DNA of 63,993 bases, counting the filler, from Dirinaria sp. TL-2023a (taxonomy: Eukaryota): the NCBI GenBank assembly GCA_051941275.1. It is 44 parts of 44 records of this genome, joined end to end, with 100 filler letters (N's around TTAATTAATTAA, not from the genome) between each part and the next. Parts side by side here need not be neighbours in the genome. Positions count along the whole stretch, not along the records: positions 46,860 to 48,201 come from JAVEBF010002789.1; 43 more parts are not named here. One strand, 5' to 3'. The notes under the pieces are model-generated. The model did no database searches and was not told the DNA's origin. It saw nothing but the letters and a program-made list of their open reading frames with translations. The position numbers and the translations under genes are program-made. Below are positions 10,402 to 59,702 of the stretch, piece by piece. How positions within the stretch are numbered: position 1 is the first letter of the stretch; each line of letters begins with the position of its first letter.

Positions 10402-10606
10402 AGACCAGAACACTAAGTATAAGGAAGAAAAGAAGGAAAAAACCAGAAGAAGCAGAAGTATAAGTACAGGAGGTGCAAGCAACAAATAGGGGCTCGGGTA
10501 TGCGGGTAACACGCCTAGGAGGGTATAGTGCAAAACCCCTTAATATCAGAGTCCTCAGGGTCCTCCAGGGTCCACACATAGGTGCTTCCAGGTCAGGTTC
10601 ATGACA
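10402..10606 (-). mobile_element. LTR family B, partial copy
   Basis: Ends ...CAGGTCAGGTTCATGACA on +; near-identical to the copies at 31869-32102 and 50509-50756. Confidence 0.85.
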
Positions 10607-10611
10607 GTCTC

Positions 10612-10741
10612 TGTTACGACCCTAGAACACCTAAGTAGTAAGATAGGCACCAAGTCCCTTAACTTGGTTTAGTTAGTCTTTTGGCGCTGCCGGGACTTTT
10701 ATCATTGGGAAACCTATGTAACCAAGGTTGGGTCTTTGACA
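10612..10741 (+). mobile_element. LTR family A (130 bp), solo copy
   Basis: TGTTACGACCC...GGTCTTTGACA with TG..CA ends; reverse complement of the copies at 47785-47914 and 34046-34175. Confidence 0.9.
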
Positions 10742-19218: not shown

Positions 19219-19841
19219 GAGGTGGAAATACCCCGCTGATATACGCTGCGCAATGCGATCATGTGGACATAGTCAAACTGCTGCTTGAAAGAGACGAGCT
19301 CGAGCTCAATTGCAAGAACAAAAAGGATGAAACTCCGCTGACATACGCCGCGAGTAACGGTCATGTGAGAATCGTCAAACTGCTGCTTGAAAGAGACGAT
19401 ATCGAGCTCAATTGCAAGAATGAATGTGGCGATACTCCGCTTTTATGCGCCACGTATAACGATCATGTGGAGATAGTCAGTATGCTGCTTGAAAAAGACG
19501 GGATCGAGCTCAATTGCAAGAATAAACTTGACGATACTCCGCTTTTATGCGCCACGTATAACGACCATGTGGAGATAGTCAGTATGCTGCTTGAAAAAGA
19601 CGATATCGAGCTCAATTGCAAGAATAGATTTGGTCATACTCCTTTGCATTATGCTGCCAGCACGGGATCCGCGAGTGTGGTTCAGCTGCTGCTTGAGAAC
19701 GGTGTCGATTTCGACAATGGCACGGAAAGCGGTCAGATGCTAATTCGGCAGGCCGTAAGATCCGAGTACACAGAGATCGTCAAGCTACTGCAAGATCATA
19801 ATGCCAGCAGCAGTCAATCGCGACCACCGAAAAGGCGCTGA
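19219..19841 (+). CDS. Ankyrin-repeat protein, C-terminal part (possibly an NLR-type repeat domain)
   Basis: 34-aa repeats (TPLxxA...HVxIVxLLLExDxIELNCKN) encoded by near-identical 102-bp DNA units; GAGCTCAATTGCAAGAA recurs every 102 bp. Confidence 0.92.
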
Positions 19842-20809: not shown

Positions 20810-21599
20810 TTACGTTATCACGCTTTGAAATTTTCGCGAGAAGTTCAAAATTTGCTTCACATCGCGATCAACATAAAGTCGATAGGCATCGAATTTCCAT
20901 CGGTCTAAGATGCGGATTTCGTCATCAGAAAGACTTCGCAAATGTGTCTTCGTTGCTGTATCTCGACGAAAAAAATGATCAGAATAGTCGTCATCGATGT
21001 CGCGCATCAGTTTTTTCAAAATGACGACGATGTGTTGTCGCGAAAACGACAGTCGCGATAAATGAAAAAGCGACGTATTAGAGAGTGCAGAGTGCATCTC
21101 AAACAGATGCTTTAACGTCTTAACTGAGAAGACATCGTCGTCTGTTGCCGCAATAAAGATAACAACGTTTTGTCGTCAAGAGTCGATCTTTGAAACAGAT
21201 AAAAGAAGTTTTAGATGTGTGACTCGAAATTTAATCGAAGCTCTGATTACGTGCCATTGCGCGAAGTTCTTTGTCGTCAAATCGACTTCGAAATATATGA
21301 TTTCGTCTATGCGCAAGAAATCAGCGAAGATCAGAAAGAATGCGGCGTGTATGTTGATCTGATCTGTATTGTCTATATGCAATCTGCTAAATAATTGCTG
21401 CAGAATGTCTCTTGTGATAAACGTTCGTTTCAGAGTACTCGTTTCGTCATTGCGTCTTCTGATGTCGACAATAATGCGTTTCAGAACCGCGTTTGCAAAT
21501 ATTTTCAAGCATGTTTCGATGTATTCTAGATCGATGTGATGTGATCTGAGATCTACTAAACAGAATTCAATTGTTTTGTCTTGTATTCTGCGAGCATTT
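20810..21599 (-). pseudogene. Tyrosine recombinase of a DIRS/Ngaro-type retroelement, RIP-mutated and interrupted by a family A mini-element
   Basis: FADFLRIDE, SKIDS*, SDHFFRRDTAT and LDRWKFDAYRLYV correspond to GFLRxGE, SKTDP, GHSFRRGAAT and LGRWKSDAYxxY (R-H-R-W-Y catalytic set). Confidence 0.88.
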
Positions 21600-22046
21600 T
21601 GTCAAAGACCCAATCTTGATTAGATAGATTTCTCAATGATAAAAGTCCCGACAGCGTCAAAAAACTAACTAAATCAAGTCAAAGGACTTGATGTTTATCT
21701 TATTACTTGATTTTGTTTTCACGATCGTAACACTATTCGAGTCTCTCTCTGAGTTTCGTTTCGAAGCTCAGCGCTCAGAGTGTGATAGAAGATTCGTCTT
21801 AATGAAAACGATTAAGTAGTCGCCTCGAGTTTAGTAAGCTCTCAGTCGTAAAGCCTCGTCGAAAACTCGAAAATCCTTCAAACGTTCGAGCTGAGAATCG
21901 AACTCAGAATCTTGCGACCGTGTTGACTTGGTTTAATGTCAAAGACTCAATCTTGATTAGATAGATTTCTCAATGATAAAAGTCCCGACAGCGTCAAAAA
22001 ACTAACTAAATCAAGTCAAAGGACTTGATGTTTATCTTATTACTTG
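21600..22046 (-). mobile_element. TRIM-like non-autonomous LTR mini-element, family A
   Basis: LTR 21600-21732, 204-bp non-coding interior, second LTR from 21937 to the contig end. Confidence 0.88.
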
Positions 22047-24830: not shown

Positions 24831-24971
24831 TATTGAGCAGGCTATTGCAAAAGATAACACGAGCGAGCACATGAAACATGAGAGATATAGTGACGCTATT
24901 GAGGAGAGCATTTTGCCGACAAAGGAGCTTAGACGTTCCCCTTTAGGTTGTCAATAGGAAAGTCACGTGCA
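24831..24971 (+). other. 141-bp contig-end overlap identical to 52624-52764
   Basis: TATTGAGCAGGCTATTG...GTCACGTGCA ends this contig and starts the contig at 52624. Confidence 0.95.
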
Positions 24972-29451: not shown

Positions 29452-30810
29452 ATCTCGAATTTCGAAATCTATCTCAGTATTGAATTTCTTAAATATCTCG
29501 TCATTATTGTCTTTCTGAGAGATATTAGAGTGGCTGAGAATGAGTTTCTTCATAGCAACGCGTTTCTTAAGACTAGTTAACATCGCAAACATGATACTTC
29601 ATGTTCTTTTCTTTTGATAATCGACGATGACGACAGTCTTGAACTCGTCTGACATAATCACAAGAGTGTCTTGATAGACATATGCCTACTCTGTTCGTTC
29701 GACGTCTTTCAGACCGTCATGATAAGTGTCAAAATTTAGAGTATCAATGTCATGAATACTATCGCTAGTTGACGTAGTCGACAATCTGAAGAGCGCGTTC
29801 GATATCACGTGTTGTTTGCTCGAGCGATGCTTAATGTTCATTTGAAATTGAGATAAGTAGATTGACGCTCTGATTAGTCGTAAATTAAGTTTGTCGATGC
29901 TGCTTGAGGTCAATTTCGTTTGATTTGCTATGACGAGATTTGCAGAGTGATCGATGAAGACGATAGTCTTCGCGACGACGTCGATCATGTGACGAATACG
30001 CTTAACAATTCACACTAGATCTGTCATTTTCAATTCAGTTGATCAATAATGACTCTCTGCAATATTGAATAGTCTGAATAGAAACATAATAAACTCAATA
30101 TCAGTGCGTTTTGATTTCTCAGAATTGATATCGTTTTTGAGATGATAGATCATTGCTTCAAAGTCACGCTGTTTGAAAGCATCGATGTCGATGTAAAGCG
30201 TACGAGTTCTATCGAAATGTACTAGAAATTCTGCTCTACTGAAGACGTCTTGTAGCTGATGATAAGAATCGAGTTCCGCGAGAGTAGATGCTTCAAGCAC
30301 AGCACGATTGACATAGATCTTACGTTGACGTTCTTTATTAGATGATGACAACTTAAATAACGCGGTCTTTCTTCTTTGCAAAGGTTCTATCTTTTGCGCA
30401 TAGTAAGACACATAGTTGCGAAGTCAATCTGTAAGCCTCAAATAGAGCTCTAAATCAGCAAGCTTGCGCGAGAATTGAAGGCGTTGAATAGCGGCTATTT
30501 TGTTCGCCGCGATGATCAAATCAAAGACATCAATCTTTTGATTTAGTAAAGTCATCGACGAGTAATCTAAAAACGACTTTTTGAGCGACAATGTAACCTT
30601 TTTGCGATTCAATAATGTAAATACAACGCGCAAATGCTTTAAGTGTTTCTCGAAAGTTTCGCTGAATATAACTAAATCGTTCATGTATGTCTTGACAAAT
30701 GCACGATAAGATCGTAATAAGATATCGATTTGTCGTTGTACATATGAAGATGAATTTTTGAATTTCATAAATGCAACGTTGTATTGCTTCTGACCTCGAT
30801 GCGATACTAC
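29452..30810 (-). pseudogene. Ty3/Gypsy pol (RT-RNase H region), RIP-mutated
   Basis: MKFKNSSSYVQRQID, TYMNDLVIFS (YxDD), LYIDIDAFKQRDF and NLRLIRASIYLSQF..HRSSKQHVISNALFRL, broken by TGA codons. Confidence 0.92.
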
Positions 30811-31094
30811 NNNNNNNNNNNNNNNNNNNNNNNNNNNNNNNNNNNNNNNNNNNNTTAATTAATTAANNNNNNNNNNNNNNNNNNNNNNNNNNNNNNNNNN
30901 NNNNNNNNNNAGTATAGATACAGAAGGTGCAAGCAACAAATAGGGGGTCGGGTATGCGGGTAAACAAATATCAGGGTCCTCCAGGGTCCTAAGGGTCCTC
31001 CAAGGCAGGCACGTGACCACACATAGGTGCTCCCAGGTCAGGTTCATGACATTATCCTCTCCCTCCAATTAGCAACGTCCCTGTTGCTGTCACC

Positions 31095-31550
31095 TCTTAT
31101 AGATTGCCTAAACAGGCCTTGACGATGTGCCTGCCGCGCAGGGCTTTGAGGGTGCCTGAAAAGGCCTTGACGATGCCATTGAAGCAGGCTCACTATAGAG
31201 GGTGCCTGAACAGGCCTTGACGATGCCATTGAAGCAGGCTCACTATAGAGGGTGCCTGAACAGGCCTTGACGATGCCATTAAAGCAGACTCACTATAGAG
31301 GGTGCTTGAAAAGGCCTTGACGATGCCATTAAAGCAGGCTCACTATAGAGGGTGCCTGAAAAGGCCTTGACGATGTCATTGAAGCAGGTTCATTATAGAG
31401 AGTGCCTGAAAAGGCCTTGACGATGTCATTGAAGCAGGCTCACTATAAAGGGTGCCTGAATAGGCCTTGACGATGTCATTGAAGCAGGCTCACTGTATGA
31501 GGTGTCTGAACAGACTTTGGCGATGCTATTGAAGTAGGCTTACTGTAGAA
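31095..31550. repeat. 50-bp tandem repeat, about 8-9 copies
   Basis: Unit CACTATAGAGGGTGCCTGAACAGGCCTTGACGATGCCATTGAAGCAGGCT starts at 31191, 31241, 31291, 31341, 31391, 31441 and 31491, with degenerate flanking copies. Confidence 0.97.
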
Positions 31551-31579
31551 CTTGATCATTGAAGGAGTCGTAAATAGTC

Positions 31580-31763
31580 GATCTGCAGTTGCTTGGTCTA
31601 CTCGTGCAACGCTCAAAACGAGTGTGATCTTGTAGTTACTTAGTCTACTCGTGCAACGCTCAAAACGAGTGTGATTTTGCAGTTGCTTAATCTACTCGTG
31701 CAACGCTCAAAACGAGTGTGATCTTGCAGTTGCTTGTTCTACTCGTGCAACGCTTAAAACGAG
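31580..31763. repeat. 47-bp tandem repeat, 4 copies, each with an ACTCGT..ACGAG inverted repeat
   Basis: CTACTCGTGCAACGCT(C/T)AAAACGAG at 31598, 31645, 31692 and 31739. Confidence 0.95.
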
Positions 31764-32219
31764 CTTTTTTGCCTTCGCCGTGTAAGAACTTTCTCGCATT
31801 CTAGATGGCACGGACTTGAGAAAAGAGACGAAATTAACATCGCTCGTCACGAGGGATAGATAGTGTAATGTCATGGTCTGCACAGCGCTCATAGGCATAT
31901 GAGTACTACTAGACTAGGACACTATCTATAAGAAAGAAAAGGAAGGACCAGAAGAAGAAGAAGTATAGATACAGAAGATGCAAGCAACAAATAGGGGGTC
32001 GGGTATGCGGGTAAACAAATATCAGGGTCCTCCAGGATCCTAAGGGTCCTCCAAGGTAGGCACGTGACCACACATAGGTGCTCCCAGGTCAGGTTCATGA
32101 CAAAATTTCGTTGATCGTTTGCAGAACATTGAAATTGTTCTGATACGCGTATCAAAGAGATGAAAAATAATTTATCGAATTGATCAGCGCTAAATGAAAA
32201 ACAATCGTGATTCGAAGAA

Positions 32220-32267
32220 TGTTACGACCCTGGAACACCTAAGTAGTAAGATAGGCATCAAGTCCCT
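32220..32267 (+). mobile_element. LTR family A, partial (contig end)
   Basis: TGTTACGACCCTGGAACACCTAAGTAGTAAGATAGG matches the family A LTR start. Confidence 0.85.
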
Positions 32268-32367: not shown

Positions 32368-32741
32368 ACAATTCGTTCAATCAACTGAAGAGACACGCTT
32401 CGTCGATCGCTGATTATGAAACTTCTGTCAAGTCTAGCGTCACTCGCTCAAAATTCTCGACGTCTACTCTCATCACTACTGAAGATAATAATGTCATGAA
32501 CTTGTCGATCAACAAGATACGTCGACCTTTGACTCAAGCTGAGAAGGAAGCCAACAAGATATATCGGCTCGCAAATAATCAATGCCTGTACTGCGGCAGT
32601 CCCGAGCACAGGGTTGCAAACTGTCCGCTGGCCAAGAAGGCTAGCCTTCGAGCAGCTTCTACGAATGGAAGCTCACCTGCTCCGTCTCTCAGCTCGAACG
32701 ACCACCACGATCATAGTCATAATCACTCGGAAAACGCATAG
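32368..32741 (+). mobile_element. Ty3/Gypsy gag C-terminus with CCHC zinc knuckle
   Basis: CLYCGSPEHRVANC; ends SENA* over a GGAAAAC slippery site. Confidence 0.88.
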
Positions 32742-33722
32742 TCTCTGGACATCGTCGCGCCCGGAGACCTGCTCAAGGTTTAAGTCTTTCTAGTACGGTC
32801 ATCCATGATGAACAAGCGCTGGAGGATCTGTCCATGCATGTACTTGTTAGCGGCAGCATAGCCAAGGCCGTTAACAATCAATTGTTCATCCCCTTTCAAG
32901 CTCTTGTTGACCCCGGTGCCTCTGGGCACGCTTTCATTGACCAAACTTTCGCGCAACGACATGATCTCGATATGATTCCCCTCAAACACCCTATTTCCCT
33001 TGAGACTTTTGACGGGTCTGCAGCTATCGCAGGCCCCATCACTCACTATGTTTATGAACCCTTTAGTACTGGTCGATCTCACCAGTACACCAAGTTCTAC
33101 GTTACTAAGATCCCGAACTGGCCCATCGTGCTGGGCTTCCCTTGGTTTAAGAAAAATAAGGCTCGTCTAGACTTCGGCAAGATGAGTCTAGAGCTTCCCA
33201 TTGATAAGATATCGAAAGAACCTACGACATCGACTGCCACTGCGTCGATGGAGTACTCCTCTAGCCCTTTGCTTATGACTGTCAATGATGACTCCCCCAT
33301 AGATGTTAATCTTGTTGGCGCCGTCGCTTTCTCACGGTTAGCCAGAAAGAAGAATCACGTTCTCGGCGCCTTTAGTCTAAAAGATATAGAAAAGGCCCTT
33401 AGTACCAAACCTAAGACCAATCCGGCGACGAAGCTGCCATCGGAACTCAGTCACTTTCTGGATGTATTTTCCCACAAAGAGGCTGACAAGCTCCCCGCGC
33501 ATCGTCCTTATGATCACAAGATCGAACTACTAGATGGTAAGGAGCCAGGCTTCGGGCCCCTGTACGGCATGTCCAGGGACGAACTTCTGGTCCTACAGAA
33601 ATACTTGACTGAGAATCTAGCCAAAGGATTTATTAGGGCTAGTTCTTCTGAATACTCGTCACCAGTACTCTTTGTTAAAAAACCCAGTGGAGGACTGCGA
33701 TTCTGCGTGGACTATAGAGGCC
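32729..33722 (+). mobile_element. Ty3/Gypsy pol (protease and start of RT), open frame
   Basis: ALVDPGASGHAFID (protease), IVLGFPWF, LPAHRPYDHKIEL and SPVLFVKKPSGGLRFCVDYR; in the -1 frame relative to gag. Confidence 0.95.
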
Positions 33723-47784: not shown

Positions 47785-48201
47785 TGTCAAAGACCCAACC
47801 TTGGTTAGATAGGTTTCCCAATGGTAAAAGTCCCGGCAGCGCCAAAAGACTAACTAAACCAAGTCAAGGGACTTGGTGTCTATCTTACTACTTAGGTGTT
47901 TCAGGGTCGTAACACTACTCGGAGCTCTCTCCGAGCTTCGTCCCGAAGCTCAGCAAGCTCAGAGCCAATGAATAGAAGGTTCGTCTTAAGTGAAAAGGTT
48001 AAGTAGTCGCCCCGAGCTTAGATAAGCTCTCAGTCACAAGTCCTCGCCGAAACCCGAAAACCCTTCAAGCGTTCGGGCTGAAAATCGAACTCAGAACCTT
48101 GCGACCGGGTTGACTTGGTTTAATGTCAAAGACTCAACCTTGGTTAGATAGATTTCTCAATGATAAAAGTCCCGGCAGCGCCAAAAGACTAACTAAATCA
48201 A
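47785..48201 (-). mobile_element. TRIM-like mini-element, family A (least mutated copy)
   Basis: LTR 47785-47914 (130 bp), 209-bp interior, second LTR from 48124 to the contig end. Confidence 0.9.
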
Positions 48202-49742: not shown

Positions 49743-49882
49743 GCATACCCGACCCCCTATTTGTTGCTTGCACCTTCTGTATCTATACTTCTTCTTCTTC
49801 TGGTCCTTCCTTTTCTTCCTTATAGATAGTGTCCTAGTCTATTTGTACCCATATGCCATTGAGCGCTGTGCAGGCCCTGACA
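49743..49882 (+). mobile_element. LTR family B, 3' part, abutting an integrase gene
   Basis: ...ATAGATAGTGTCCTAGTC...GTGCAGGCCCTGACA. Confidence 0.85.
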
Positions 49883-50508
49883 AAAGCTCTTAGATATTGC
49901 TCTAAAACTTGATTTTGACGTTCGATTAAATCATTCGTCTGTGAATGAAAAGCAGTGCTCAATCGACGTTTAATTTTCGCATGAAAACATACTGCGAACC
50001 AAAAAACACTAATGAATACAGATTCTCTGTCACTCACTATGTCGTCTGATATATCAAAACGTAGAACGATTTTTTCGAAAAATATTTTCGTCAGTTGCGC
50101 GACGTTTATAATTTTTTTAACAGATAAATATTTAGTCATTTTGATGTATCTGTCAATCATCACTAATATAAAGTCATAGACAACGTTGCGTCGTTTGCTC
50201 GTCGACAAGCTCGATATAAAATTCATGATTAATTCTTTTCATGACTTTGTGACAACAGACAAAGACTTAAACTCATCATATGATCTATGTCGCGATGCTT
50301 TGATGCGTTGACAAATATCACATGATCGAATATATTCTTTCATCTGCTCTTCGCAGACGAGTCAGTAATATTTTCTCTGAATTAGTTTCAGAGTTTTTTC
50401 TGCATCAAAGTGATCGATCAAAGAATCATCATGATTTTTGCGAATAAGTTCTTCTCTTACAGCCTCATTCCCGAGAACATAAAGTCGATCTTCATGTCTA
50501 ACTAGACC
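49883..50508 (-). pseudogene. Ty3/Gypsy integrase (HHCC and catalytic core), RIP-mutated
   Basis: HDDSLIDHFDAEKT, CDICQR, ILVMIDRYIKM, IVSDRESVF, STAFHSQTNDLIERQNQVLEQYLR. Confidence 0.92.
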
Positions 50509-50756
50509 TGTCATGAACCTGCCCTGGAAGCACCTATGTGTGGACCCTGGAGACTTCTAATATTAAGGAGTTTTGCACTATATTCTTATAGGCGTTATCC
50601 GCAGACCCGTTACCCGCACACCCGATCCCCTATTTGTTGCTTGCACCTCCTGTACTTATACTTGTGCTTCTGGTTTTTTCCTTCTTCTCTTCCTTATACT
50701 TAGTGTCCTAGTCTAGTAGTACTCATATGCCTATGAGCGCTGTGCAGGTCATGACA
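50509..50756 (+). mobile_element. LTR family B, solo copy (248 bp)
   Basis: TGTCATG...CATGACA inverted termini; homologous to the other B copies. Confidence 0.9.
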
Positions 50757-52167: not shown

Positions 52168-52260
52168 TGTCAGGGTCTGCACAGCACTCAATGGCATATG
52201 GGTACAAATAGACTAGGACACTATCTATGAAGAAGAAAAGGAAAGGAAATCTAAATACAG
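52168..52260 (-). mobile_element. LTR family B-related fragment
   Basis: TGTCAGGGTCTGCACAGCACTCAATGGCATATGGGTACAAATAGACTAGGACACTATCTAT is the reverse complement of the B LTR 3' end. Confidence 0.8.
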
Positions 52261-54913: not shown

Positions 54914-55200
54914 TGTTATGAATCTGACCTGGAAGCCCTATTATAGGTCACATGCTTGTGGTCACGTACTTGTCACTAGACCCTGAAGACCCCTATTACT
55001 AGGTTTTTACCCGACCGGGTCCCTACAAAACCAGGCACCCACCTCTGTATCTAGACTTCTTCTTTTCTTCCTCATAGTTAGTGTCCTAGTCAAATAGTAC
55101 CCACATGCTATGTTCGCTGTGCAGGCCCTGACATTAATATCAGAGTTCTCAGGGTCCTCCAGGGTCCACACATAGGTGCTTCCAGGTCAGGTTCATGACA
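54914..55200. mobile_element. B-related LTR (+, 54914-55133) abutting a partial family B LTR (-, 55134-55200)
   Basis: TGTTATGAATCTGACCTGG...GCAGGCCCTGACA followed by sequence matching about 10540-10606. Confidence 0.8.
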
Positions 55201-55498
55201 TTACCCCTGAGAGCCCTGGGAGGTGTTGCCCCAGGTAGTATACCAGGTGCATGCTCGTAACAGATTTAAACTCTCATTAGCTCACGGAATATTTCAGATC
55301 GTGAGCACAAGTAATTACGAATCTACTGATTCGAATACGATGAGTTTTTTTTTTGTCGACAAGAGAGTTCTGATGAGCGTTCATTCTCATGGTCTTGCNN
55401 NNNNNNNNNNNNNNNNNNNNNNNNNNNNNNNNNNNNNNNNNNTTAATTAATTAANNNNNNNNNNNNNNNNNNNNNNNNNNNNNNNNNNNNNNNNNNNN

Positions 55499-58269: not shown

Positions 58270-58876
58270 NNNNNNNNNNNNNNNNNNNNNNNNNNNNNNN
58301 NNNNNNNNNNNNNTTAATTAATTAANNNNNNNNNNNNNNNNNNNNNNNNNNNNNNNNNNNNNNNNNNNNGTGGCCTCAGACGATCACGGCAGCTCGATAC
58401 GGACGAGAACGAGCAGCGGCCGCCTGGGTACGTGTCTCGCAAAGGTCGCGATTGACGAACAGGTACACTCGACCACGGCTCCTCTGGGGGAGGACAAACG
58501 GCAGCGAGGAAGGAGAGACTCGCACGGTAGCTATCCCGCGCTCGACTGGCGAGCAAAGCAGCAGAGTCGAAGGCGACTCGAATCGGCAGCTGGATACGCG
58601 TCAAAGGTTGACAAACCAGCAGGGCCAACGGTGGCCTTCAATTGAGCTCCGGGGGAGCAACAGATTCATCGCCAAGGACGGCGACAACGTGGCTGGAATA
58701 GCCAACGACCAACTCACTAGGTCGCTAAAGGAATAGTGTATACACCACCTTCACCGCCTTGACGAGGCACCTTTTAGACGAGACGATTTCGTCTCCTCTT
58801 TCACCTTTTACAACTTCGATTCGCCCGTCACCTATACTCTATACTATACTCAATTCACTTCTGCACCTTACACGCC

Positions 58877-59702
58877 ATGGGGAACGACATCAGGAAGTCA
58901 ATTGGGTTGCTCACTCGAGCCACGAACGAGAAATGGTTCAGGAACATGAAAGACCACTTGATGGCAGAAGACCTCTGGAGGGTAGTCGAAACACCACGTT
59001 CCATCCCATACCCTGCAATCAAGACACCTACGAATTCCGAAGCATCTACACCCGGCGTAGCACTGGACCCAAACGACGTTAAAAATAATGCCAAAGCCAG
59101 ACTACATATTCGACAATGCTTGGAAGACGATGATGAGGAGGATGTGGCAGGCATGAACACGGCCAACGAGATGTACCAATACCTATACCTCAAGTATGCT
59201 GAAAAGCTCGAGACCACGAGACAGGATTACTTGAGGGAATACACCACCTACTTGAAGCCTGCGGATAAGTCAATCCAAGAAGCCCACACCCACCTCAAGA
59301 AGCTCGGACGAAAGATTGTCGCCACAAGTCCCACGCTATCACAGCTTTGCTCGGCCTCTCAAATTTTCTAGACTCTCCTACACGCACTGCCCAACGAATA
59401 CGACGCGATTCGAGATGGGATCAACGCACGAAAGGTTGATATCGGCGCCGAACGTCTTGATAAGTTCATTGCGGAGTCCCTTCAGATGCTGGAAGAGAAG
59501 GAGGCGAAAATCAAACTCGACGAGGCCGCGATGTACGCAAAGCGCGATCTAATGTTGAAACGAGGCTCCAGTCGCTCCAAATCTCGGCACCGACGACACA
59601 GCTCCTCTTCTTCAGGTTCAGGCAAGCACCGCCGAGATCGTGCTCCAAGGCCCGTATGTTGGCTCTGCTCGGAGTCTCACTCAGTGCGGAATTGCCCTCA
59701 CC
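58877..59702 (+). mobile_element. Copia-type gag with CCHC knuckle and a single in-frame TAG at 59369-59371
   Basis: KWFRNMKDHLMAEDLWRVVE, NAKARLHIRQCL, TANEMYQYLYLKY, LLHALPNEY and CWLCSESHSVRNC. Confidence 0.8.

Follow-up and report, generated by a model that had tools for sequence, protein, structure and literature searches.

A small TRIM-like LTR element with a candidate self-primer in contigs of a probable lichen-type ascomycete

Results

The element and its copies in the window

The window, i.e. the whole stretch of DNA that was analysed, has a length of 63,993 bases and is not a single locus; it consists of 44 contigs of 1,325-1,389 bp each, ordered by size and separated by spacers of the form N44-TTAATTAATTAA-N44. 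The element under study, here called family A, lies at 47785-48201 and consists of two long terminal repeats (LTRs) around a short interior. A BLASTN search of 47785-48201 against the window returned 21600-22014 (85.3% over 422 columns), 33823-34123 (86.5% over 312 columns), 34046-34175 (93.8% over 130), 10741-10612 on the opposite strand (95.4% over 130) and 32267-32220 (93.8% over 48). This confirmed the plan given in the preliminary description, LTR-interior-LTR in three contigs and further LTRs at 10612 and 32220, with the addition that all three copies run into a contig end. With the solo LTR and the LTR fragment the family occupies at least five loci. The features are listed below; strands follow the sense reading of the element that is argued for further down.

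47785-47914, minus strand: copy 1, 3' LTR in the sense reading; complete (130 bp), TG..CA ends, flank beyond 47784 unique
47855-47867, minus strand: copy 1, candidate self-primer of 13 nt; sense LTR positions 48-60, perfect complement of the candidate PBS
47915-48123, minus strand: copy 1, interior, 209 bp, non-coding
47915-47944, minus strand: copy 1, candidate polypurine tract; 21 purines in 30 nt beside the 3' LTR
48110-48122, minus strand: copy 1, candidate PBS, one base downstream of the sense 5' LTR
48124-48201, minus strand: copy 1, 5' LTR; final 78 nt only (contig end), 73/78 identical to the 3' LTR of copy 1
21600-22046, minus strand: copy 2, visible extent; GC 37%, LTR pair 109/110 identical
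21600-21732, minus strand: copy 2, 3' LTR, 133 bp
21733-21936, minus strand: copy 2, interior, 204 bp, with the PBS at 21923-21935
21937-22046, minus strand: copy 2, 5' LTR; 110 nt, cut by the contig end
33823-34175, minus strand: copy 3, visible extent; 3' LTR truncated, 5' LTR complete
33823-33847, minus strand: copy 3, 3' LTR; last 25 nt only, cut by the contig start
33848-34045, minus strand: copy 3, interior, 198 bp, with the PBS at 34032-34044
34046-34175, minus strand: copy 3, 5' LTR; complete, unique flank beyond
10612-10741, plus strand: solo LTR, 130 bp, 95% identity with copy 1; a family-B LTR ends 4 nt before it
32220-32267, plus strand: LTR fragment, first 48 nt, truncated at the contig end; a family-B LTR ends 117 nt before it

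The LTR at 21600-21732 has 133 bp, whereas those at 47785-47914, 34046-34175 and 10612-10741 are 130 bp long. None of the interiors (209, 204 and 198 bp) is coding; over the entire element no stop-free stretch exceeds 41 codons, and no frame that starts with ATG exceeds 26. As a small, non-coding and multicopy LTR-interior-LTR element it is of TRIM size, and the earlier label TRIM-like holds. A full element would measure 130+209+130 = 469 bp. It should be noted that all three copies run into a contig end, each losing part of one LTR there, and therefore this length of about 470 bp stays a projection and a target site duplication (TSD) is unreadable on the copies. Of the five occurrences four reach a contig end; a repeat at which short-read assembly breaks off would be expected to do so.

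Termini, flanks and divergence of the copies

On the plus strand the LTR runs from TGTCAAAG to GTCGTAACA, and every complete end conforms to TGT...ACA. Three left ends, each independent, begin at the same TG, and three right ends, likewise independent, finish at the same CA; the flanks of the five family-A contigs show no mutual similarity. The solo LTR at 10612-10741 is the sole LTR with both flanks, each copy showing one flank only, and no TSD was found beside it. Such a TSD-less solo LTR is possible after recombination between different elements; it does not support mobility.

When the three copies are aligned they are 83-88% identical to one another. The two LTRs within a copy are closer than that, with 109/110 identical positions in copy 2, 73/78 in copy 1 and 22/25 in copy 3, which fits both LTRs having been copied from one template. 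Copy 2 differs in composition from copy 1 (GC 37% versus 46.5%) by an excess of C>T and G>A changes that is common to both its LTRs, and 18 of its 29 lineage-specific changes are C>T or G>A. As both LTRs carry these changes, the sequence suggests that copy 2 was copied from an already diverged template. Classic post-insertion RIP was considered as the cause of the divergence and found not to be supported, as the lineage-specific C>T changes lie in CpC and CpT, not CpA, and are common to both LTRs of copy 2. Transitions outnumber transversions in each of the pairwise copy comparisons (46:14, 28:8 and 46:10).

One LTR position sorts by side. The base 11 nt before the LTR end (sense position ~120) is A in all three PBS-side LTRs (48134, 21947 and 34056) and G in both far-side LTRs (47795 and 21610) and in the solo LTR (10731). 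Ordinary reverse transcription should make both LTRs of a copy identical and not maintain such a difference between the 5' and the 3' LTR. With only six observations the sorting may be due to chance, or to a chimera or assembly effect at the contig ends.

Complement between LTR and interior

The preliminary description reported a perfect 13-nt complement between the LTR and the PBS position. In copy 1 the complement between 47855-47867 and 48110-48122 is indeed perfect, and the PBS, TAAACCAAGTCAA on the minus strand, follows the LTR after one spacer base; it occupies the position of a PBS only when the element is read on the minus strand. A complement of 13 nt was reached in 0 of 20,000 shuffles of the interior and in 0 of 20,000 shuffles of the LTR, the maximum being 12. 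The PBS is kept in all three copies, with 0, 0 and 1 mismatch at the LTR-end/PBS junction.

In the perfect match of copy 1 the partner of the PBS is the far (3') LTR, and the LTR next to the PBS in that contig has a G>A change at primer position 9. When PBS and 5' LTR of the same copy are compared, 12 of the 13 positions pair, the remaining one, primer position 9, being an A.C mismatch in copies 1 and 2 and a G.U pair in copy 3; in its present state none of the copies in the window is a perfect self-primer. The part of the earlier claim that concerns the far LTR thus stood, and the complement with the adjacent LTR is imperfect in every copy. The mismatches are single transitions, and as transitions dominate the divergence among the copies they are compatible with decay of inactive copies; yet they weaken the case for self-priming.

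For an RNA started at the 13-mer the fold-back onto the PBS is the dominant predicted structure, with pair probabilities of 0.95-1.0 for most pairs. The same 13-mer is also the 3' arm of a local 7-bp hairpin in the LTR, the other arm of which resembles the PBS. A TGG-type PBS, complementary to a tRNA 3' end, is absent at both family-A junctions, in agreement with the preliminary description.

Self-priming with a PBS complementary to the mRNA's 5' terminus is the rule in Tf1/sushi elements (PMC10085805, PMC7175516, PMC4600332), with Tj1 as one example (PMC4600332), and the structure involved is a three-duplex 'pretzel', the side duplexes of which join PBS-adjacent sequence with LTR sequence downstream of the primer (PMC10085805). 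In the three copies the downstream side duplex has -15.7, -10.3 and -6.8 kcal/mol, values matched by 7, 133 and 940 of 2,000 shuffles, and the upstream side duplex is matched by 840, 848 and 60 of 2,000 shuffles. In these models the central duplex is clear and neither side duplex clearly exceeds chance; of the two, the downstream one is strong in copy 1 only. Judged from sequence, the likeness to self-priming elements is supported by an LTR/PBS complement that is highly non-random and of the Tf1/sushi kind. No recognised promoter was found in the family-A U3, which would be only 47 nt long.

Reading strand and structure of the interior

The layout of the PBS, the purine-rich junction and the RNA folding all fit the minus strand of the window, and the element is therefore read on that strand, with 48124-48201 as the 5' LTR and 47785-47914 as the 3' LTR. 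On the plus strand the 13-mer would fall in the place of the polypurine tract, and the PBS position would be complementary to the LTR over at most 3 nt. The 30 nt next to the LTR hold 21-22 purines on the minus strand versus 14-15 on the plus strand. The minus-strand tract is interrupted; its pure run of 8-9 nt is separated from the LTR by about 12 nt, and purines make up 10-11 of the last 15 nt.

The predicted fold of the copy-1 interior RNA has -75.1 kcal/mol on the minus strand (z -2.52, 0 of 200 shuffles as good) and -58.5 kcal/mol on the plus strand (z -0.93, 35 of 200 shuffles as good). The earlier view of a structured interior is in line with the minus-strand prediction, and the three hairpins then named (47918-47935, 47933-47951 and 48014-48029) are real, with stems of 7-8 bp and loops of 2-4 nt. 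The consensus structure of the three interior sequences has eight helices with 96.6% of the cells paired. Changes on both sides were seen in 4 pairs versus 1.7 in shuffles, and 12 of 500 shuffles reached 4, a comparison that involves three sequences only. In this analysis of stem covariation, which had been proposed as a check, the modelled pattern is suggestive of a conserved structure, though thin at three sequences.

Further, a hairpin with a 5-bp stem and a 7-nt TTCGATT loop lies about 25 nt beyond the PBS on the minus strand (48078-48092 and 21891-21905) and is partly deleted in copy 3. By eye we take it to resemble a tRNA T-arm or a pol III B box; neither ARAGORN nor Rfam gave support for it. 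The 15-nt pattern occurs in copies 1 and 2 only, and 12 of 100 window shuffles give two matches at 2 mismatches.

ARAGORN found no tRNA gene or tRNA-like sequence in the window, LTRs included. The Rfam search gave no match for copy 1 and four for copy 2, all far below the gathering score (E 0.4-6) and treated as chance; no tRNA, 5S or hammerhead was matched at E up to 10 in copies 1 and 2.

Neighbouring elements

A second small LTR family, family B, has an LTR of about 234 bp running from TGTCATGG to CATGACA and was found at the following positions.

30911-32102: family B
49743-50756, minus strand: family B
10402-10607: family B
55134-55206: family B
52168-52243: family B

The contig at 30911-32267 holds two family-B LTRs, 97.9% identical over the 141 visible nt, which flank about 900 bp; this interior has tandem repeats of roughly 100-150 bp (31098-31549). 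Self-priming was considered for family B as well and set aside as support, the comparison of the LTR with the next 30 nt giving no complement of 7 nt or more in one copy and one of 8 nt in another. In two contigs a family-A LTR starts shortly past the end of a family-B LTR and in the same relative orientation, at a distance of 4 nt (10602-10615) and 117 nt (32096-32225). Nesting within DNA rich in transposons, or an insertion preference, may explain this arrangement.

Open reading frames in the flank of copy 2, at 20813-21601 on the minus strand, were considered as a decayed tyrosine-recombinase gene. This was abandoned; Pfam gave only weak unrelated matches (E up to 5), and no relative at E 0.001 or better was found among longer proteins.

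Coding sequence of larger retroelements is present in the window at three positions.

29689-30810, minus strand: decayed Ty3/Gypsy pol fragment, C-terminal part of the RT followed by an in-frame stop and a frameshift
32370-33721, plus strand: decayed Ty3/Gypsy pol fragment, retropepsin domain and start of the RT
58778-59371, plus strand: open frame with a Copia-type Gag domain (Retrotran_gag_2, E 5e-8)

The last of these means that Ty1/Copia elements are present too. The best solved relatives of the two pol fragments are the Ty3 RT and a caulimovirus polyprotein. These fragments share no sequence with family A, and no autonomous element with the family-A LTR or PBS was found in the window. The fragments are candidates for the kind of partner that the element would use. 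The proposal that the element is a parasite of fungal Gypsy elements was accordingly not borne out by a Gypsy partner sharing LTR or PBS in the window, and stays conjectural.

Outside the window, a 28-nt degenerate LTR pattern had no match in metagenome, viral and prokaryote genome contigs. A 20-nt LTR-end/PBS pattern matched seven metagenome loci; all of them are alike only over those 20-22 nt, and they were treated as chance.

Host

The identifiable genes of the window are fungal; they comprise a fungal rhodopsin domain, DUF7580, uricase, a proteasome subunit, an ankyrin protein and a STE3 pheromone receptor. The top named relatives of the uricase frame (36798-37535) come from lichen-forming Lecanoromycetes with 77-79% identity, other relatives reaching 83-89%. 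Searches with Pfam and against proteins gave no identifiable fungal gene on any of the five family-A contigs, and hence the assignment of a host to family A rests on the other contigs. From their sequences the host is most likely a lichen-type ascomycete, closest to the lichen-forming Lecanoromycetes.

Two observations concern the contigs themselves. The last 141 bp of the contig that bears the STE3 gene (24831-24971) are 100% identical to the first 141 bp of another contig (52624-52764). Such an overlap resembles what a de Bruijn assembler leaves at its k-mer length, and 141 is a default largest k in one widely used metagenome assembler; in that case the two contigs probably adjoin each other. 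At the DNA level the ankyrin-repeat coding frame at 19221-19841 on the plus strand is itself tandemly repeated, in diverged units of about 102 bp that are 78-83% identical.

Discussion

The observation made in the preliminary description was confirmed, and its interpretation is supported in part. The LTR-interior-LTR plan with sharp termini is found without coding capacity at loci that number at least five with the single LTRs, and it is very probable that family A is a TRIM-class LTR element. The window further contains the primer/PBS complement and the asymmetry between the strands. The full reading, a TRIM-class non-autonomous LTR retrotransposon with self-priming of the Tf1/sushi type, is the one that we favour, with moderate confidence.

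From these features we infer how the element, if active at present, would be transcribed, cleaved and served by a partner. Its RNA would correspond to the minus strand of the window, with transcription starting at or near LTR position 48. The first 13 nt would fold back onto the PBS one base past the 5' LTR, the RNase H of the partner element would cut the primer/PBS duplex, and the freed 3'-OH would prime minus-strand synthesis, as demonstrated experimentally for Tf1; the purine-rich tract at the other junction would prime the plus strand. The proteins needed in trans (Gag, protease, RT/RNase H and integrase) would most likely come from a Ty3/Gypsy chromovirus of the Tf1/sushi type, and the structured interior would be the packaging and priming scaffold.

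Within this framework the complement could have another role if the element were a TRIM whose primer was an RNA of the host, for example a tRNA half or an internal tRNA piece. According to Kojima 2024 (PMC10886601) most fungal Helenus TRIMs have a PBS complementary to tRNA anticodon loops and not to 3' ends, and priming of this kind would agree with the imperfect same-copy pairing of primer and PBS in all three copies and with the 13-mer being an arm of a local hairpin whose other arm resembles the PBS. The LTR/PBS complement would then be an RNA switch, serve dimerisation or packaging, or reflect an LTR segment derived from that host RNA. The perfect 13-nt match to the element's own LTR is however far beyond chance, and each single mismatch is a transition, like most of the changes by which these copies have decayed. 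Neither ARAGORN, which finds no tRNA-like sequence in the window or its LTRs, nor Rfam, which at E up to 10 matches no tRNA in either of two copies, points to a tRNA; we regard a host-RNA primer as unlikely. Much the same doubt applies to the idea that the units are pieces of tandem (LTR-interior)n arrays or of long elements that were recombined or internally deleted, with unequal crossing-over, gene conversion or segmental duplication as the main route of spread instead of retrotransposition, or that they are partly chimeric ends of short-read contigs. Every copy stops at a contig end inside its second LTR, contig ends in repeats can be chimeric, no TSD was seen, and the sorting of A and G 11 nt before the LTR end (A in 3/3 PBS-side LTRs, G in 2/2 far-side LTRs and the solo LTR) would suit such arrays, although these six observations could equally come from chance or an assembly effect. 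Random array breakpoints would not, however, let six independent junctions coincide to the base at TG and CA; moreover, the flanks of the copies are unrelated, and the LTR pair of copy 2 is 109/110 identical when copy 2 diverges 13-17% from the other copies. On balance we find arrays an improbable source of these units.

It is very improbable that family A is no retroelement at all and represents some other dispersed repeat, be it retrozyme-like, pol III-driven or derived from a DNA transposon. Such an origin would account for the lack of a visible reverse-transcription product, TSD or partner, and the interior hairpin at 48078-48092 and 21891-21905, which by eye we take to resemble a T-arm or B box, could be taken in its favour. 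The terminal repeats are however direct and not inverted, they end in TG..CA, the junctions are PBS-like and PPT-like, and a solo LTR exists; T4 runs, at which pol III would terminate, are frequent on the sense strand, and no hammerhead, tRNA, 5S or other Rfam match comes near threshold.

A more specific version of the self-priming reading can be imagined, in which family A represents a fungal TRIM lineage with a complete tRNA-independent priming module in less than 500 bp. Its LTR would act as a three-way switch, the primer 13-mer pairing either with the upstream LTR arm (the 7-bp hairpin) or with the PBS, and the T-arm-like hairpin would help to recruit the RT/RNase H of the partner. Given the 109/110 identity of the copy-2 LTRs and the contig breaks inside the element, such a lineage may still be mobile in lichen fungi. 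We offer this as speculation and consider it quite unlikely. If true, the lineage would be a minimal natural substrate for studying the recognition and cutting of a self-primer.

If the self-priming reading is correct, about 470 bp would hold all cis signals needed by a machinery of the Tf1/sushi type, i.e. att ends, self-primer, PBS, PPT and packaging structure. The element would then be a compact handle for defining these signals and for tracking down its autonomous partner among lichen-forming fungi; to our knowledge the transposons of this group are little studied. For annotation it should be noted that elements like family A break short-read assemblies, and that LTR finders demanding a tRNA-type PBS would miss them. 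Existing knowledge of the mechanisms of retrotransposition is unchanged by family A.

Comparison with known systems

The suggestion that the element is possibly undescribed was overstated, fungal TRIMs (PMC10886601) and self-priming of Gypsy elements of filamentous ascomycetes (via PMC6934838) being in print. TRIMs are there described as elements of less than 1 kb that are non-coding and have two LTRs, a PBS and a PPT (PMC10886601). For fungi there are Helenus in rusts and agarics (Kojima 2024, PMC10886601) and the work of Santana et al. 2013 on fungal TRIMs (as referenced in PMC6934838). Self-priming has been proposed for Maggy, Skippy, Cft-1, Boty, Grasshopper and Afut1 (Lin and Levin 1997, cited in PMC6934838), and the latter paper, on bivalve TRIMs, mentions self-priming merely as a possibility. 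As judged by titles and the starts of abstracts, we found no fungal self-priming TRIM or other non-autonomous LTR element; the literature located in the same way held no TRIM description for lichen-type ascomycetes.

Family A shares with TRIMs a length below 1 kb, the lack of proteins, two short LTRs, priming signals at both ends of a short interior, multiple copies, a solo LTR and a presumed dependence on an autonomous element; SMART elements are the smallest relatives in this class. It differs from TRIMs in that the PBS is not complementary to a tRNA 3' end and in its host, a lichen-type ascomycete. Helenus/TRIMp3 of rust and agaric fungi resembles it; this is also a fungal TRIM, its LTR measures about 120-320 bp and its PBS is non-canonical. 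According to PMC10886601, however, the defining feature of Helenus is a tRNA-derived pol III promoter within the LTR, which is not detectable in family A, and the Helenus PBS matches tRNA anticodon loops, whereas that of family A matches its own LTR. Retrozymes, as cited in PMC10886601, are likewise small non-coding LTR elements with a structured RNA, but carry a hammerhead ribozyme in their LTRs, and family A gave no Rfam hammerhead match at E up to 10. Identity with Helenus/TRIMp3 or with retrozymes was ruled out by these negative results of ARAGORN and Rfam.

The closest likeness in priming layout is to Tf1/Tf2 of Schizosaccharomyces pombe and to the Tf1/sushi chromoviruses (Tj1, Tosmo1-3, Tcn1), which also have a PBS just past the 5' LTR that is complementary to a site inside the LTR and not to a tRNA 3' end. 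The predicted fold-back duplex of family A has 13 bp, that of Tf1 11 (PMC7175516), and both have LTRs ending in CA, a purine-rich tract before the 3' LTR and a fungal host. Family A differs from Tf1/sushi elements by having no coding sequence, a length of about 470 bp versus roughly 5 kb, an LTR of 130 bp with a U3 of only 47 nt, and 'pretzel' side duplexes that are not clearly present. Its place beside Tf1/sushi is suggested by the priming layout. Self-priming being the norm in a sizeable group of fungal Gypsy elements, miniature derivatives that retain the parental self-primer are to be expected. Small non-coding LTR elements and self-priming are both already known in fungi, and family A is a new example, not a new kind.
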